Assembly (NCBI GenBank): GCA_963720545.1
Contig: OY970399.1
Coordinates: forward strand, 1,632,001-1,696,000
From: an uncultured Acidobacteriota bacterium
Lineage (GTDB): Bacteria; Acidobacteriota; Vicinamibacteria; Fen-336
DNA: 64,000 nt
Direction of reading: 5' to 3'
The notes below the pieces were generated by a model. That model made no database searches, was not told where the DNA came from, and was given only the letters and a program-made list of their open reading frames with translations. Numbering within the stretch: the stretch's first letter is position 1; the number at the start of each line of letters is the position of its first letter. Position numbers and translations under genes: made by a program. Below, in pieces: positions 22,913 to 33,648 of the stretch.

Positions 22913-24169
22913 TCACTGCCGAACCTCCTCCGGCGGTCGGGACTCCACGAACTGCCCGAAGAGCACGATGTCGTAGACGATCTTGAGCGTTCCCGCGAGG
23001 AAGAACGGGAGACTCCACAAGGCGGGCCGGGCAAACATGAGGCCCACGAGGAACGGACTGATTGAAGCGCCGACGGTGCGAGCGACGCTGGTAAAGCCTC
23101 CGGCCGCCGCCCGTTCCTCCGGTGCCACGACGGCCATGACGTACGACTGTCTGGCCGGCACGTCCATCTGGCTGATGCTGAACCGGAGAAGGAGCACGGC
23201 GACCGCCCACCACAACGACGGCATCAGCGGAACCAGAATCAGCAGGACGTTCGACGGCAGGTGCGTGAAGACCATCGTCTTGATCAAGCCGATGCGCGCC
23301 GCAAGACGCGATGCGAGCAAGGCTGAGAGGCCGGCGAAAACGTTGGCCCAAAAAAAGATCGCGCCAAGTGCAGCGACATCGACGCCAAACCGCAGGTGGA
23401 ACCAATAGGCCGCGAACGCCTGGACGACGAAGCCACCTCCGAACGAGTCGAGCGCAAACAGCGCCGACAGCTTCATCACGACGCCACGCGAACGATCGAG
23501 TCCTGAGAGCCCGCTGATCATCGTTGCCCTCGACCTCGCGTCCCCGTACGGCCCCGCCTCGGTTCGGTGCGACAGTCCTGCAAAGGTCACGGCGAGCACA
23601 ACGCCCAACACCGCGTACAAAATGACCACGGCCCGATAGCTGTTGAGCGGCAGCATGGCCGCTGCCTGCAAGACGCTGGTGATGACTCCGGCCGACAGCG
23701 CCCCGAGCGCGGTCGCGAAGGACCCCGTGAGCGTATACCAGGCAAACACTTCCGTTCTGTTGCGATCAGTGACCACCTGGGAGAGTGCCGCTTGCTCAAT
23801 CGGCAGGAACGGTCCCACCTCGTGTCCACTTGGACTCAGTACGCCGATTGTCCCCGCAAGCAGAAGCACCCACAGACTTGCCGTCGACGCGAACACGAGT
23901 CCCGCGCCCGTCATGAGTAGCGCGCCAACGATGAGCATGCGTCGACGCCCCATTCGGTCCGCGCGAGTCGTGATCGCCAGGGAAATAACGGTGTCACCAA
24001 GCAGCGTCAGCGTGAGCAGCACCCCGACTTGCTGTTCGCTGAGACCAAGGCGTACCAGGTAGAACACAAGCACGACCGACAACGACCCGTACGCGAAGAG
24101 CCGGATGAACCGCGTCGCAAAGAGCAACTGGGTGTCACGGGCCAAATGCGGGAGAACTGGTCTCAACAT
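22913..24169 (-). CDS. MFS transporter
   Basis: About 12 TM helices, ADRMGRRR motif; ATG at 24169 with GAGG RBS. Confidence 0.85.
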   Translation of the reverse strand: MLRPVLPHLARDTQLLFATRFIRLFAYGSLSVVLVFYLVRLGLSEQQVGVLLTLTLLGDTVISLAITTRADRMGRRRMLIVGALLMTGAGLVFASTASLWVLLLAGTIGVLSPSGHEVGPFLPIEQAALSQVVTDRNRTEVFAWYTLTGSFATALGALSAGVITSVLQAAAMLPLNSYRAVVILYAVLGVVLAVTFAGLSHRTEAGPYGDARSRATMISGLSGLDRSRGVVMKLSALFALDSFGGGFVVQAFAAYWFHLRFGVDVAALGAIFFWANVFAGLSALLASRLAARIGLIKTMVFTHLPSNVLLILVPLMPSLWWAVAVLLLRFSISQMDVPARQSYVMAVVAPEERAAAGGFTSVARTVGASISPFLVGLMFARPALWSLPFFLAGTLKIVYDIVLFGQFVESRPPEEVRQ

Positions 24170-24215
24170 GTCCTCAGCAATTTCGCCGGTCGATGGCACA
24201 AATCGACGTCGTAGT

Positions 24216-24629
24216 TCACCCGCCCGTGGATTGACGCCACCCTTCGTGCTCGAGGAGCCTCTCGACCCGCTGTCGTATCTCGTCCCGAATTTCCCTGACT
24301 CGAGCGAGCGGTTTGCCCTTGGGATCCTCCAGCGGCCAGTCCTCGCGCTCCAGGCCAGGCACGACCGGACACTGATCGCCGCAGCCCATGGTAATCAGCA
24401 TCTGAGCGCCCTGCGCCAGGGCCGGCGTCAGTTTGGATGTCGAGGCTTCTGACAGATCGACGCCGACCTCGGACATGGCGACGACTACTTCCGGATGGAC
24501 GCGCGGCCCCGGCTCCGTGCCGGCGGAGATCGCGCGCGCCCGGGTCGGCTCGGATAACAGATTGAACCACGCAGCGGCCATCTGAGATCGGCCGGCATTG
24601 TGGACGCAGGCGAAGAGCACCGTCTTCAC
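24216..24629 (-). CDS. arsC: Arsenate reductase (LMW-PTP family)
   Basis: CVHNAGRSQMA, SAGT, TMGCGDQCP, DPKG; GTGA overlap with arsR. Confidence 0.9.
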   Translation of the reverse strand: MKTVLFACVHNAGRSQMAAAWFNLLSEPTRARAISAGTEPGPRVHPEVVVAMSEVGVDLSEASTSKLTPALAQGAQMLITMGCGDQCPVVPGLEREDWPLEDPKGKPLARVREIRDEIRQRVERLLEHEGWRQSTGG

Positions 24630-25048
24630 GACGGGGAGATACGAGGTGCACAGCACGTTCCGCCCGCGGGACTGTTGAGGACGTACAGCTGCCCGAATGA
24701 ACGTTGAAACTGCTTCCGGTCCTGCGTCGTGGCTGGCAACTGCTGCAACGCGTCGACTGCAGCCGCGACCACGCGGCGCATCACGGGATTCAGCGATCTC
24801 GACACCTGGTAGTGCATCCACACCCCGTCGCGGCGGGCGGTGACGACACCGCCCTTGCGCAGATACGCAAGATGGCGAGAGACCGTCGGTTGCGGGAGGC
24901 CAAGGCTGTCGTGCAGGTGGCAGACGCACACCTCGTTGTTCCCCAGAAGGGCGAGGATACGCAGGCGCGTAGTGTCGGCGAGAGCCTTGAACAGGCTCTC
25001 CATCTCGTCGACGGCGGCCCGGGATCTGGATTTCGTTGCGTGCTTCAT
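24626..25048 (-). CDS. arsR: ArsR/SmtB family repressor
   Basis: FKALADTTRLRIL, EVCVCHL, VSRHLAYL; C-terminal CC. Confidence 0.9.
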   Translation of the reverse strand: MKHATKSRSRAAVDEMESLFKALADTTRLRILALLGNNEVCVCHLHDSLGLPQPTVSRHLAYLRKGGVVTARRDGVWMHYQVSRSLNPVMRRVVAAAVDALQQLPATTQDRKQFQRSFGQLYVLNSPAGGTCCAPRISPS

Positions 25049-25101
25049 ATATTTGCCTTGACGAATGTACCATCAGTTAATATATTCCCAAAGGCGAATA
25101 T
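25049..25101. promoter_or_regulatory. Divergent arsR/arsM promoter with two palindromic operator boxes
   Basis: ATATTTGCCTTGACGAATGT (25049-25068) and ATATTCCCAAAGGCGAATAT (25082-25101). Confidence 0.65.
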
Positions 25102-25115
25102 CAAAGGAGTAGCCC

Positions 25116-25940
25116 ATGGACGCCGTCAAGGCAGCGGTGCAACAGAAGTATGGCGAGGCAGCGCAGCAGGCCCGTAGCGGAGCGAGGGCAGGTTGTGGAT
25201 GCGGGACGACCTGTGGGCCCGATCCGATCACTTCGAATCTCTACGACGACGCGCAGGCAGCGGGCGTGCCCGCTGAGGCTTTGCTTGCTTCCCTGGGCTG
25301 CGGCAACCCAACTGCGCTGGCGGAGCTGCAACCCGGCGAGGTCGTCCTCGATCTCGGCTCTGGCGGTGGCATCGACGTGCTCCTGTCGGCCAGGCGCGTG
25401 GGCCCGAACGGAAAGGCCTATGGCCTGGACATGACAGACGAAATGCTCGCGCTGGCCCGCGAGAACCTGGCCAAGTCTGGCCTCACGAACGTCGAGTTTC
25501 TCAAGGGCGAGATCGAGCACATCCCGCTTCCCGACAACTCCGTCGATGTGATCATCTCGAATTGCGTGATCAATCTTTCCGCCGACAAGGACCGCGTGCT
25601 CGCGGAGGCGTTCCGCGTTCTAAGGCCAGGCGGTCGTTTCGCCGTGTCGGATGTGGTCGTCAGAGGGGACGACATGCCCGCGGAAGTGCGCCGAAGCATG
25701 GAGCTCTGGGTCGGCTGCGTCGCGGGTGCGCTCGAAGAATCGACCTACCGGAGCAAGTTGTCGAGAGCCGGCTTCGAAGCGGTCGAACTCGAGCCAACGC
25801 GCATCTATCGTGCGGCTGACGCAAAACAGTTTCTTGAAGCGGCAGGATTGTCGGACGACGCAACACTCGCGCAAGTCGACGGCCGGATCATGAGTGCCTT
25901 CGTGCGCGCCCACAAACCGGCTGCGAGCGCCTTGCTCTAA
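25116..25940 (+). CDS. arsM: Arsenite S-adenosylmethionine methyltransferase
   Basis: [31 protein letters not shown]. Confidence 0.9.
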
Positions 25941-25961: not shown

Positions 25962-26036
25962 TGGCTCCTCAGATAGGATTCGAACCTATAACCCTCCGGT
26001 TAACAGCCGGATGCTCTACCATTGAGCTACTGAGGA
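25962..26036 (-). tRNA. tRNA-Asn(GTT)
   Basis: TCCTCAGTAGCTCAATGGTAGAGC..CTGTTAAC..GGTTCGAATCC..GAGGAGCCA; cloverleaf with encoded CCA. Confidence 0.97.
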
Positions 26037-30562: not shown

Positions 30563-32431
30563 ATGAGGCTGCGCCTTGTGGCAGGCATTGCGTGCGCGCT
30601 GGCCGGACTCGCGGCACTCGGCGCAGGCACACCAGCGACGCCGCGCACCGCCTCGCCACTCGCGCCGGAGATCGCGCGCCTCCGCGCGGTACTCGATGCC
30701 GCGCCGCAGAGCGACGAAGTGAAAGAGACGGCTCCCGGGCTGCGCGACGCGCTCGACCGCGCCGCGGCTCACGAACGCGCGGGGCGGTTCCTCGCCGCGG
30801 TGGACACGCTCGAGTACGCACGCAGCACCATCCTCGCCCTCGACACCATGGCGCGGCAGACGCCTGCCGACGGCGGCGACCTCGACCGCTTCACTGCGGC
30901 GTGGCAGGCGGCGGGACCCGGCCTCGAGAAGGACGCGCGCACGTGGGCCGGACAGTCGTGGGCGGGAGTTCCGGCAGCCGTGCGCGCGGTTGCCGAGAGC
31001 GCCTTTGGCCGCTCACAACACCTCTACCAGGCAGCCGACTCCTACGCGCGTGTGACCTCGCCGGCCGCCGGCTACTACTACATGGGCGAAGCGCAGGGCA
31101 CCATGACTTCCGCACTCTTCGTACGCGGGCTCGGTGCACCGCGAAGCGGCGCCGCGGCTCCGGCCGCGCGCAGCCTCAAGGGCGAGCGCACATCGCTCGC
31201 GAAACGCATCGAGGCGATCTACAAGCCGCCGCTGGCGATCGACCGCCATCCCGACTTCATCCGCACCAACTCCGCGCTCAAGCTGGCCGGCGAGCTCGAC
31301 GATGCCGGCCTGCGCTACGGCGCGCTCCTCGCCTACCTCAAGGCGGAGCGCGGGCTCGGCGAGCTGCTCCTGCCGGTGCCGCAGGCGGGCGAGCGCGGTG
31401 CGATCGAGGCGCGGCTCAAGGAAGCTCACGAGCGCCATGCCACGGCGCAACGCGACGACAGCATCGCGCTCGTCCTCATCGAGGCGGCGCAAGGCGGCAT
31501 CGAGAGCGCGCGTGACGATGCGGCGCGCGGTACGGCGCTGCGCACCGCGAGCGCCGTGCTCGACCAGGCGCTGCCGGCGTATCGGGCGACTCTCGAGGAT
31601 TCGGTCCCGGAAAAGCTCACTGCGGCGACGGCCGCGCCCGCGGTCAGGGTCACGCTGGTGCGCTGGCCGTACACCTGAAACCTGTCCGATCCGGCAAGTT
31701 TGCTGGCCAGGGAAGTCGCCGACCGTTATCAGGGCCGTGTCGAGTTCGTCAGCGAGAACTTCGGCGAATCGGAACTCGCCCGCAGGTTCGGGGTTACCCG
31801 CTACCCGGCCATCTTCGTCGACGACGTGCTCGTCGCCCGGCCCATCGACTTCGGCTTCTTCGCGAAAGGCGAGACCGCCGGCCGCTATACGCCGTTTCGC
31901 GACCCGAAGAGCCACGCGCGCTTCCAGGCCGATCTCGCACGCATGATCGACCTGGTGCTCGCGGGCCGCAAGGAAGATCTGCGCGCCGAGCGCACGGGTG
32001 AAGCGCCGGCGGAGATCGCCTCTCTGCCGGCGGTGAGCGCGGCGGGACTCAGCGGCGAACCGCTGCAGCTTGCCGGGCTGAAGGACAAGGTGGTGCTGGT
32101 CGAGTTCTGGGCCACCTGGTGCCCGCCGTGCCGCTCCACGCTGCAGTGGCTCGGCGAGCTGAAGAAACAATACGGCGACAAGCTCGAGGTGGTTGCGTTC
32201 GCGGTCGAGTCGCCCGACGACCAGGTGCGCAGCCTGGTCGCGCAGCTGAGCCCCGAGGTGCGCTGGGCCATCGCGAGCCCGGAGCTGGCCCGCGAGTTCG
32301 GCGACGTCTCAGCGGTGCCGACGCTCTTCGTCTTCGATGGCACGGGGCGCACCGCCCGGATCGCCTACGGCGCTCCGCCCGACCTGCACGACACGGTCGG
32401 CAAGCTGGTCGCGGAGTTGACGCAGCGCTAG
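30563..32431 (+). CDS. Putative exported selenoprotein (622 aa): signal peptide, helical region, thioredoxin-like U-x-x-S domain, TlpA-like CxxC domain; Sec at TGA 31676-31678
   Basis: Two ORFs in the same frame separated by one TGA; Trx fold spans the TGA; SECIS-like hairpin; WATWCPPC in the last domain. Confidence 0.8.
31679..31711 (+). promoter_or_regulatory. Bacterial SECIS-like element
   Basis: CCGGCA-AGTT-TGCTGG hairpin whose loop starts after 18 nt following the UGA; lower stem CCTG/CAGG. Confidence 0.75.
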
Positions 32432-32451: not shown

Positions 32452-33648
32452 ATGACCATGACCACCCGCAGAGAGCTGTTGCTGTCGGCACTCGGCGCCT
32501 CGAGCGCCGCGCTCCTCCCCCGCTTCGCGCGTGCCGCACAAGCCCCGGCTGCGGCCGCGGCGGCGCCGGCCAGGAACTATTCGGCGCGCGCGGTGACATT
32601 GGTCCGCGAAACGACGGTCATCGACATGCTGAGCCCGTTCTCGCTCGACTTCGACACGCTCGCGAAGTGGACCGCGAACCCGGAGATGTTCACCTCTGCC
32701 ATGCTGCAGCGCTACCTCGATTCGGGGATCAACGTCTTCCACATCGCGGTGGGCACCGGCGGCCAGAACGCCTACGACGAGACGCTGCAGTTCGTCGCCG
32801 GCTGGGACTCGTTCATCGCCGGCCAGGACGGCGCGTTAATGCGCATCGACAGCAGCGGCGACTTCGACCGCGTGAAGGCCGCACGCAAGGCCGGCATCCT
32901 GGTGGGCGTGCAGAACTCGGAGCATTTCCGCAAGCCTGACGACGTCGACCTGTTCCACGGCCTCGGGCAGCGGGTTTCGCAACTCACCTACAACAGCCGC
33001 AACCTGATCGGCGACGGCTCCACCGAGCGCACCAATGCCGGCCTCAGCGACTTCGGCGTCGCCATCGTCGAGCGCATGAACAAGGTCGGCATGGCGGTCG
33101 ACGTCTCGCATTCGGGAGAAGCCACCTCGATCGACGCCTGCACCGTCTCGAAAAGGCCGGTGCTGTTCACGCACGCGAATGCGCGCGCCCTCAACCCGAA
33201 GCAGCCGCGCTGCAAGAGCGACGAGGCGATCAAGGCGATGGCAAAGAGCGGCGGCGTCATGGGCATCACCGGCGTGCGCATGTTCGTGAAGCCGGACGAG
33301 CCCACCACCATCGAGCACGTGCTCGACCACTACGACCACGTCCGCGACCTGGTGGGCGTCGAGCACCTCGGCATCGGCAGCGACATCGACCTCGACGGCT
33401 ACGACGACATGCCGCCCGAACTCAACAAGCAGCTGCGCGCGGGCTACAAGGCGAGCTACGCGTTCCGCGACAAGATCGACATCGAGGGGCTCGACCACCC
33501 GAAGCGCGTCTACGACCTCACCGAGGGCCTGATCTCGCGCAAGTACGCGGACGAACAGATCCGCGGCATCCTCGGCGGCAACTTCCAGCGAGCGCTCGGC
33601 GAGATCTGGAAGCCGCAGCCGGCAGCGGCGGAAGCGCCGAAGAAGTAG
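32452..33648 (+). CDS. Tat-exported membrane dipeptidase (peptidase M19)
   Basis: TRRELL Tat motif; QLTYN, GLSDFG, DVSH, THAN, GIGSD, GGNF. Confidence 0.88.
   Translation: MTMTTRRELLLSALGASSAALLPRFARAAQAPAAAAAAPARNYSARAVTLVRETTVIDMLSPFSLDFDTLAKWTANPEMFTSAMLQRYLDSGINVFHIAVGTGGQNAYDETLQFVAGWDSFIAGQDGALMRIDSSGDFDRVKAARKAGILVGVQNSEHFRKPDDVDLFHGLGQRVSQLTYNSRNLIGDGSTERTNAGLSDFGVAIVERMNKVGMAVDVSHSGEATSIDACTVSKRPVLFTHANARALNPKQPRCKSDEAIKAMAKSGGVMGITGVRMFVKPDEPTTIEHVLDHYDHVRDLVGVEHLGIGSDIDLDGYDDMPPELNKQLRAGYKASYAFRDKIDIEGLDHPKRVYDLTEGLISRKYADEQIRGILGGNFQRALGEIWKPQPAAAEAPKK

Follow-up and report, generated by a model that had tools for sequence, protein, structure and literature searches.

A likely single gene, divided in databases at an in-frame TGA, for a predicted exported selenocysteine-containing redox protein of uncultured Acidobacteriota

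Two consecutive ORFs in an uncultured Acidobacteriota bacterium (genome G000) raise the question of whether they are two genes or one, and, if one, what its product might do. In the window (the whole 64,000-nt stretch of DNA analyzed), ORFs of 371 aa (30563–31678) and 243 aa (31700–32431, with a TTG start) lie in one frame with a single TGA, at 31676–31678, between them, as the first-pass annotation had described. Reading that TGA as selenocysteine (Sec, U) reproduces its proposed read-through peptide and gives one gene on the + strand (30563–32431, stop codon TAG) for a protein of 622 aa with its sole U at position 372; full-length homologues are 42–47% identical. The expectation that gene callers would cut such a gene at the UGA is borne out: all 38 N-terminal database proteins, the window's own included, stop at WP[YF]T, and among the 120 post-UGA fragments listed none starts with the RWP motif and 119 have the CxxC site of a TlpA domain. 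A public example of the outcome is the consecutive “hypothetical” genes QOJ16_188 and QOJ16_189. The ORFs that databases keep apart are likely one gene, whose predicted product is an exported redox protein of 622 residues. One sample contig (run X2, record 10; 595 letters, 6 differences) also bridges the TGA, and among the variant rows listed none falls at 31676–31678; this contig was not counted as evidence.

What occupies codon 372 in other members of the family? The homologue pool consisted of 134 loci, drawn from related genomes, GTDB contigs, the phylum sample, and metagenomes (the best 80 of 369 matches); rows L045 (no Sec-domain match), L046–L053 (TlpA-only), L070 (a duplicate of the window) and L075 (an unpublished genome) were removed before counting. 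A single motif match was found at 131 of the 134, and in this pool, which is skewed to close relatives that are not independent of one another, the codon is TGA in 126 of 127 distinct copies (the window's gene counted) and TGC in one (L055); TGG, TAA, and TAG do not occur. Homologues have TGA or Cys at the position, as foreseen, and never Trp. The three loci with two pattern matches, read apart and set aside from this count, likewise carry TGA: L136 and L139 are one TGA gene, and L167 has two tandem full gene copies (at 1259 and 3033), each with TGA and a GGTC hairpin. TGA terminates ordinary genes in these genomes, and so has not been reassigned genome-wide.

Cysteine replaces the putative Sec in 11 database proteins, five of them full-length three-domain chains, and several of the 11 deviate from the Ser/Gly-Leu that the hairpin described below imposes. 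On a rough tree the Cys forms are dispersed, with at least five changes on supported branches, the tree being unrooted and the direction of change not fixed. One TGA copy (L090) reads UxxC, which marks position 375, a serine in the window's protein, as the resolving site. In one database protein, P0104, the nucleophile is replaced by Asp.

The region just downstream of the TGA resembles a bacterial SECIS element. The upper stem-loop proposed in the first-pass annotation, CCGGCA-AGUU-UGCUGG, is present at 31691–31706 (+ strand) with its loop beginning 18 nt past the UGA, and it contains the TTG (31700) that gene callers take as a false start. Of the lower stem CCUG/CAGG (31681–31684 and 31708–31711), the complementarity stands for this locus but not for the family: it varies in homologues, and the consensus fold retains the upper stem only. 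The codons of this stretch were correctly flagged as atypical, GCA accounting for 6.3% of Ala, AGT for 2.1% of Ser, TTG for 4.6% of Leu, and AGG for 3.4% of Arg codons in the genome. The suggested likeness to E. coli fdhF also held when the fdhF sequence was compared (TGA, 18 nt, then loop GGTC within GCA-GGTC-TGC); in 34 of the 126 TGA copies the 10-nt stem-loop GCA-GGTC-TGC and its offset are identical to those of fdhF, whereas the window and 88 of the 126 copies have an AGUU loop, there is no conserved lower stem, and the protein is unrelated. The numerical bSECIS criteria (loop of 3–9 nt, stem of 4–16 bp, G in the first two loop positions, 16–37 nt from the UGA, MFE ≤ −7.5; PMC13188914 Fig. 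2, in excerpt), applied by hand as published, agree with what is found here: a 4-nt loop starting A-G, a 6-bp stem, 18 nt, and −12.2 kcal/mol for 45 nt.

The energy of the hairpin is no better than that of shuffled sequences (z −0.22 to +1.06), so that the evidence for it is conservation rather than stability. In the TGA copies the hairpin is kept 18 nt downstream, with near-frozen synonymous sites (Ala+6 is GCA in 125/126, Leu+9 is CTG in 126/126, and Pro+5 is CCG or CCA only), whereas control codons vary: a control Ala codon reads GCA in 9 of 118 copies, and the control Pro codons are of all four kinds. Loops are AGTT in 88 copies, GGTC in 34, GGTT in 2, and GGGA in 2, so that the first and last loop bases co-vary (A/U 88, G/C 34, G/U 2, G/A 2), this being one pair with few events on the tree. 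The TGC copy reads CCC GCC AGC CTG ATC at the hairpin site: the element is lost. A geometry scan over all 78,847 TGA triplets of the genome, with a pattern derived from the window locus itself, gave two matches, this locus and one judged by eye to be non-coding. No SECIS family among the Rfam covariance models matches the element, and blastn of its 45 nt against E. coli genomes gave no match.

The genome carries the genes of the Sec machinery, so that its absence, one of the refuting outcomes named in the first-pass annotation, does not apply: selA (E 8.5e-128), selB (1.5e-106), and selD (2.3e-102) are all over cut-off, as is a selC tRNA-Sec with a TCA anticodon. Among genomes carrying the TGA form, 40 of 41 have selA, the one miss being in a genome that is 75% complete; this is consistent with the Sec reading but a weak test of it, selA being frequent across the phylum in any case (in the phylum sample 297 of 401 genomes exceed the cut-off, a count that includes the unpublished genomes G083, G107, and G209). 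Taken with the codon counts and the conserved hairpin, the TGA at 31676 almost certainly encodes selenocysteine.

The same genome has at least three Sec candidates, the two outside the window coming from known families. A deiodinase-like gene (L185; G000:C1:401472-402152) reads FGSCT-U-PPF at TGA 401754, matches Pfam T4_deiodinase at E 4.7e-35, and has both a hairpin with a G-rich loop about 20 nt downstream of the TGA and an N-terminal hydrophobic stretch; by these features it is likely the second selenoprotein of the genome. A BCP/PrxQ-type peroxiredoxin (L186; G000:C1:2575482-2575943) reads TPG-U at TGA 2575617, with a strong hairpin whose AGUU-type loop lies 16 nt downstream, and is likely a third. 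Formate dehydrogenase was considered as a further Sec user and rejected: the three TGA codons of the formate-dehydrogenase-like molybdopterin gene (L066; G000:C1:2511819-2513066) stem from a mid-gene frameshift, which may be an assembly error, and from its motif we take the gene to carry Cys at the usual Sec site. On the selA count, Sec use in the phylum looks much commoner than one would expect from how little it figures in the selenoprotein literature.

The architecture proposed in the first-pass annotation (signal peptide, helical region, UxxS thioredoxin, and CPPC TlpA domain) is recovered by structure prediction and domain matches. Hydropathy predicts a signal peptide with a basic N-region and a hydrophobic core (30563–30628, + strand, cleavage site approximate), and an N-terminal hydrophobic stretch is found in 33 of 38 homologues, two control stretches each giving 0 of 38; the chain is thus very probably exported, as far as sequence can indicate. 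An AlphaFold2 model built with 23 sequences (pLDDT 85.7, pTM 0.75) has a disordered N-terminus, a helical region at residues 33–345, a small thioredoxin at 361–477, and a TlpA domain at 482–621, with a low-confidence linker at 478–483.

The all-helical domain (30659–31597, + strand; 313 aa) contains no conserved Cys; in the alignment Y173, G175, F232, and D298 are invariant, and the conserved polar residues are R141, E145, Y173, H229, K240, and D298. Folded alone it gives a pLDDT of 96 and a pTM of 0.93. It matches no Pfam or NCBIfam family, apart from an MIT domain match in 2 of 70 members (E 0.0017), and BLAST finds no alignment between its halves that would indicate an internal repeat. Foldseek gave no match at E ≤ 0.001 and no whole-domain match, which does not show the fold to be new; VIA-align gave three-helix sub-matches only, the best of which (Z 10.8, rmsd 1.7, 73 residues aligned) is within the range of common bundles.

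The Sec-bearing domain (31643–31993, + strand) has the motif RWPYT-U-NL-S-DPA, YP at the cis-Pro position (P415), and a family-specific insert, P.DF...GRY.P. Its sequence matches to thioredoxins are weak (best E 0.011–0.024). The placement of U at the first and Ser at the second active-site Cys, claimed on first reading, agrees with the weak alignments (E 0.024–0.14), which set W-P-Y-T-U against W-A-P-W-C and S375 on the second Cys. In the whole-chain model the domain runs strand-helix-strand-helix-strand-strand-helix, with the nucleophile starting helix 1 and a cis-Pro position present; weak sequence scores and modeled topology together suggest that it is a thioredoxin. A search of a viral structure library returned generic thioredoxins only. 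The C-terminal TlpA/ResA-like domain (32006–32425, + strand), with the motif WCPPC (C520 and C523, at 32120–32131), is more easily placed: it matches Pfam Redoxin at E 1.4e-11 and superimposes on 3gl3_A (Z 20.5, rmsd 1.9, 138 residues aligned) and on ResA 2f9s_A (Z 18.7).

How widespread is this arrangement? The post-UGA fragment alone falls into 1,540 clusters (90% identity) at E ≤ 1e-10 among 1,792 candidates. In the phylum sample the family is carried by 23 of 401 genomes, all with TGA, and these 23 are also the ones with the helical domain, an overlap to be expected in part because the two domains are mostly fused (the unpublished G083 is included in both counts, but no statement on sequence depends on it or on the other unpublished genomes). 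Of 12 titled GTDB matches 10 are Acidobacteriota, and the window's genome presumably belongs to that phylum too, since locus L061 is the same gene as one in G452, a genome of that phylum. Across loci the helical partner is joined to the front of the Sec domain in 96 and to its back in 1; in 19 it has its own gene upstream, one of these cases probably reflecting a frameshift, and in 11 it was not detected, 10 of them having insufficient flank. Consistent occurrence as two genes, which the first-pass annotation had held would speak against its reading, is not what the loci show: 19 do split, with the break lying ahead of the Sec domain rather than at the UGA. Where the unit is split, the gene for the Sec and TlpA domains begins with a signal-like stretch of its own, a further point in favor of export; in 10 of 11 genomes, all from a single genus, we take this stretch, from its Tat motif, to be twin-arginine-like. 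A permuted order (signal, Sec-thioredoxin, TlpA, helical) is found at L089 and in proteins P0011, P0094, P0147, and P0167. Database relatives without a TlpA domain (P0006, P0007, P0081, P0168, P0180), and others consisting of the thioredoxin domain alone (P0064, P0074), also exist. Two single cases are of separate interest: P0092, a database protein in which an ECF-type sigma factor is fused to a Cys form of the Sec domain, and L064, in a Latescibacterota genome, where a transposase-like ORF (L064:2868-3851), presumably IS30-like, lies between the helical gene and the Sec-TlpA gene.

Does the protein belong to a described selenoprotein family? The first-pass annotation recognized none, and a 2026 list of 119 families (PMC13188914) likewise lacks it. 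Against NCBIfam (June 2026), neither the complete protein nor the Sec domains of 28 members nor the Cys forms score above the cut-off of any model; the curated selenoprotein models tested include TsoX, TsoB, SaoT, WAxxUGC, and PDO_seleno_TRX, and scores against cut-offs were 16.8/185 for TIGR02187, 15.3/52 for TsoX, and 30/300 for WAxxUGC, with a best E of 0.024 over the 28 Sec domains. The UxxS entries in the 119-family table are rhodanese (form 1), arsenate reductase TIGR00014, and Prx-like cd02970, none with the architecture seen here (PMC13188914); the Sec domain has no rhodanese, ArsC, or AhpC/TSA match. The families of Haft and Tolstoy (2025) were compared through that table and NCBIfam. 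No description of the family was found in the literature, including the available portions of PMC13326102, PMC12013277, and PMC13745706, and two papers matching the motif are, to judge by their titles, unrelated; BSepDB or supplements may file members under a generic Trx label. The family is apparently uncatalogued, the new elements being the domain arrangement and the uncharacterized helical domain, and the known one a thioredoxin-fold selenoprotein.

Its nearest points of comparison each cover one part of it. With TlpA, ResA, and CcmG (DsbE) it shares WCPPC and the fold of the C-terminal domain, but here these make up the last 140 residues only, not the Sec-bearing domain, and that domain scores far below the NCBIfam cut-offs for ResA (51.6/170) and TlpA (51/230). 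Small-thioredoxin selenoproteins (TsoX NF045809, HUIPC NF047660, SaoT NF040730, Sec.1/Sec.2 of PF13192, PDO TIGR02187) have a similar fold with Sec in the active-site motif, PF13192 and TIGR02187 each giving weak scores in 4 of 28 Sec-domain members, none near cut-off; those proteins, however, are listed as UxxC, CxU, or UxC in PMC13188914, as against UxxS with RWPYT and SDPA flanks here, and the window's protein adds a signal peptide, the helical domain, and TlpA. In the Caulobacter ScsB-TlpA-PprX pathway and in TlpA-Msr fusions, an exported TlpA feeds a partner redox enzyme and is sometimes fused to it (PMC3322552, in excerpt); here the partner would be a monothiol Sec-thioredoxin rather than a Prx or Msr, and the donor in G000 looks like CcdA. 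The CxxS protein disulfide isomerases (PDIs) ERp44 and AGR2 likewise have one nucleophile, Ser at the resolving position, and a place in the secretory compartment (PMC12384036, in excerpt), but they are eukaryotic Cys proteins: the comparison is one of analogy, the shared fold being the extent of the homology shown.

A dapC-like aminotransferase gene ends 63 nt before the selenoprotein start, and an M19 dipeptidase gene (32452–33648), presumably with a twin-arginine-like signal to judge from its motif, begins 21 nt past the stop; neither is conserved beside homologues. No sigma-70-like promoter was found for the selenoprotein gene. At 22913–25940, adjoining a tRNA-Asn (25962–26036), are genes for an arsenite methyltransferase (above the NF008823 cut-off and free of TGA), an arsC/LMWP-like protein, and an MFS transporter; no link between these genes and the selenoprotein was found. 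Among 83 neighbor ORFs from part of the loci, there is no conserved neighborhood pointing to a substrate.

What, then, might the protein do? The reading favored here, at a probability of roughly one in two, is that it is an envelope oxidoreductase in which Sec attacks an oxidized client and is recharged by the protein's own TlpA domain, fed in turn by CcdA. SelB would bind the hairpin and insert Sec at the UGA, and the chain would be exported to the cell envelope, where U372 could form a Se-S bond with a client disulfide or oxidized Cys. Because the resolving position is occupied by Ser, that bond must be resolved by the client or by another dithiol: the former would amount to isomerization, the latter, here presumably through C520-C523, to reduction. 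The TlpA domain might then be re-reduced by the CcdA-like protein of G000, which has a CcdA-sized gene of the DsbD family, while the helical domain would select or hold the client and so give specificity; overall, the protein would be a self-recharging envelope disulfide isomerase or repair enzyme. A TlpA-to-Sec relay is rather probable: in almost every locus the Sec domain has a CxxC TlpA domain behind it, in Caulobacter a TlpA takes electrons from ScsB and hands them to an enzyme in the periplasm (PMC3322552, in excerpt), and the CxxS PDIs both isomerize and hold clients, from which another Cys can release them (PMC12384036, as excerpted). The relatives without TlpA mean that the relay is not obligatory in cis. 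That the client of U372 is a protein is about an even bet.

The least unlikely of the alternatives is an envelope selenoperoxidase, U372 reducing H2O2 or organic peroxides and the fused TlpA regenerating it, which would condense the ScsB-TlpA-PprX pathway into a single chain. Having Sec in the first Cys position and a hydroxyl residue in the second makes the site similar to the UxxT of GPx-like proteins (Table 1 of PMC13188914), the peroxiredoxin PprX is a periplasmic substrate of TlpA (PMC3322552, in excerpt), and two heme-copper oxidase subunit I genes imply that G000 likely meets oxygen. The Sec domain is, however, a small thioredoxin lacking the Prx PxxxTxxC motif and matching no GPx or Prx model, and a peroxidase would not need the 313-aa helical partner that is present in 116 of 117 loci with enough flank or a match.

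Slightly less likely again would be a small-molecule or metal(loid) enzyme, in which U372 reduces or captures a ligand bound by the helical domain (organoarsenic, sulfane sulfur, sulfoxide, Cu, or Hg). The conserved polar residues listed above for the helical domain were counted in favor of ligand binding; P0187, the closest outsider that the profile search turned up (E 5e-4), scores best to the small thioredoxins TsoX and MTH895/ArsE; arsM and an arsC-like gene lie 5–6 kb upstream in the window; and selenoproteins of the arsenate reductase and rhodanese families have UxxS in the 2026 table (PMC13188914). The arsenate reductase model TIGR00014 nevertheless gives no match, and metal or arsenic genes do not recur beside homologues, the one multicopper oxidase neighbor being at the Cys locus L055.

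A pure holdase or redox sensor, forming long-lived Se-S adducts beside a TlpA domain that acts separately (e.g., in cytochrome or oxidase assembly) with no internal relay, is improbable. It would accord with the TlpA-less forms, with the Cys form fused to an ECF sigma factor in P0092, with the structurally ordinary ResA/DsbE character of the TlpA domain, and with descriptions of CxxS PDIs as holdases (PMC12384036, in excerpt); on the other side, the Sec and TlpA domains remain one chain through gene splits and domain permutation, which suggests that they are coupled. Finally, the idea that translation truly stops at the TGA, whether in a pair of coupled genes or in a shared pseudogene, or that the codon stands for Trp or Cys, has very little left to recommend it beyond the two-gene database calls, the TTG start at 31700, and the lack of an Rfam SECIS match, given that the codon is always TGA and never TAA or TAG in 126 copies, would cut a thioredoxin fold after its first strand, is bridged by continuous Cys forms, goes with a hairpin tied to TGA copies, and is not reassigned genome-wide.

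The finding adds a large family (1,540 clusters by the post-UGA fragment) to the bacterial selenoproteome. By cutting the gene in two, public annotation has made a predicted exported selenoenzyme look like an orphan next to a TlpA that seems to be cytoplasmic. Its Sec forms greatly outnumber its Cys forms, which may be why screens based on Cys/TGA pairs missed it; deep-Sep work, in the portion available, notes this blind spot. As the SECIS-like element is nearly that of E. coli fdhF, expression in E. coli and trapping of clients look directly feasible. No other kind of selenoprotein is as common as the thioredoxin-fold one, and novel chemistry is therefore improbable. A 2026 review states that aerobic bacteria rarely retain selenoproteins (PMC13188914, in excerpt); G000, in contrast, combines two genes for oxidase subunit I with at least three Sec candidates. 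A fuller picture, more tentative than the oxidoreductase reading and put at somewhat below even, is that of a self-contained, Se-based envelope repair machine common in uncultured Acidobacteriota, in which the helical domain picks a specific client, a selenol free of a resolving Cys attacks it, and the built-in TlpA domain resets the enzyme with electrons from CcdA. If true, bacteria would have their own self-recharging equivalent of the CxxS PDIs, concealed among more than a thousand database clusters, and Sec would be present in the oxidizing envelope of oxidase-bearing bacteria.
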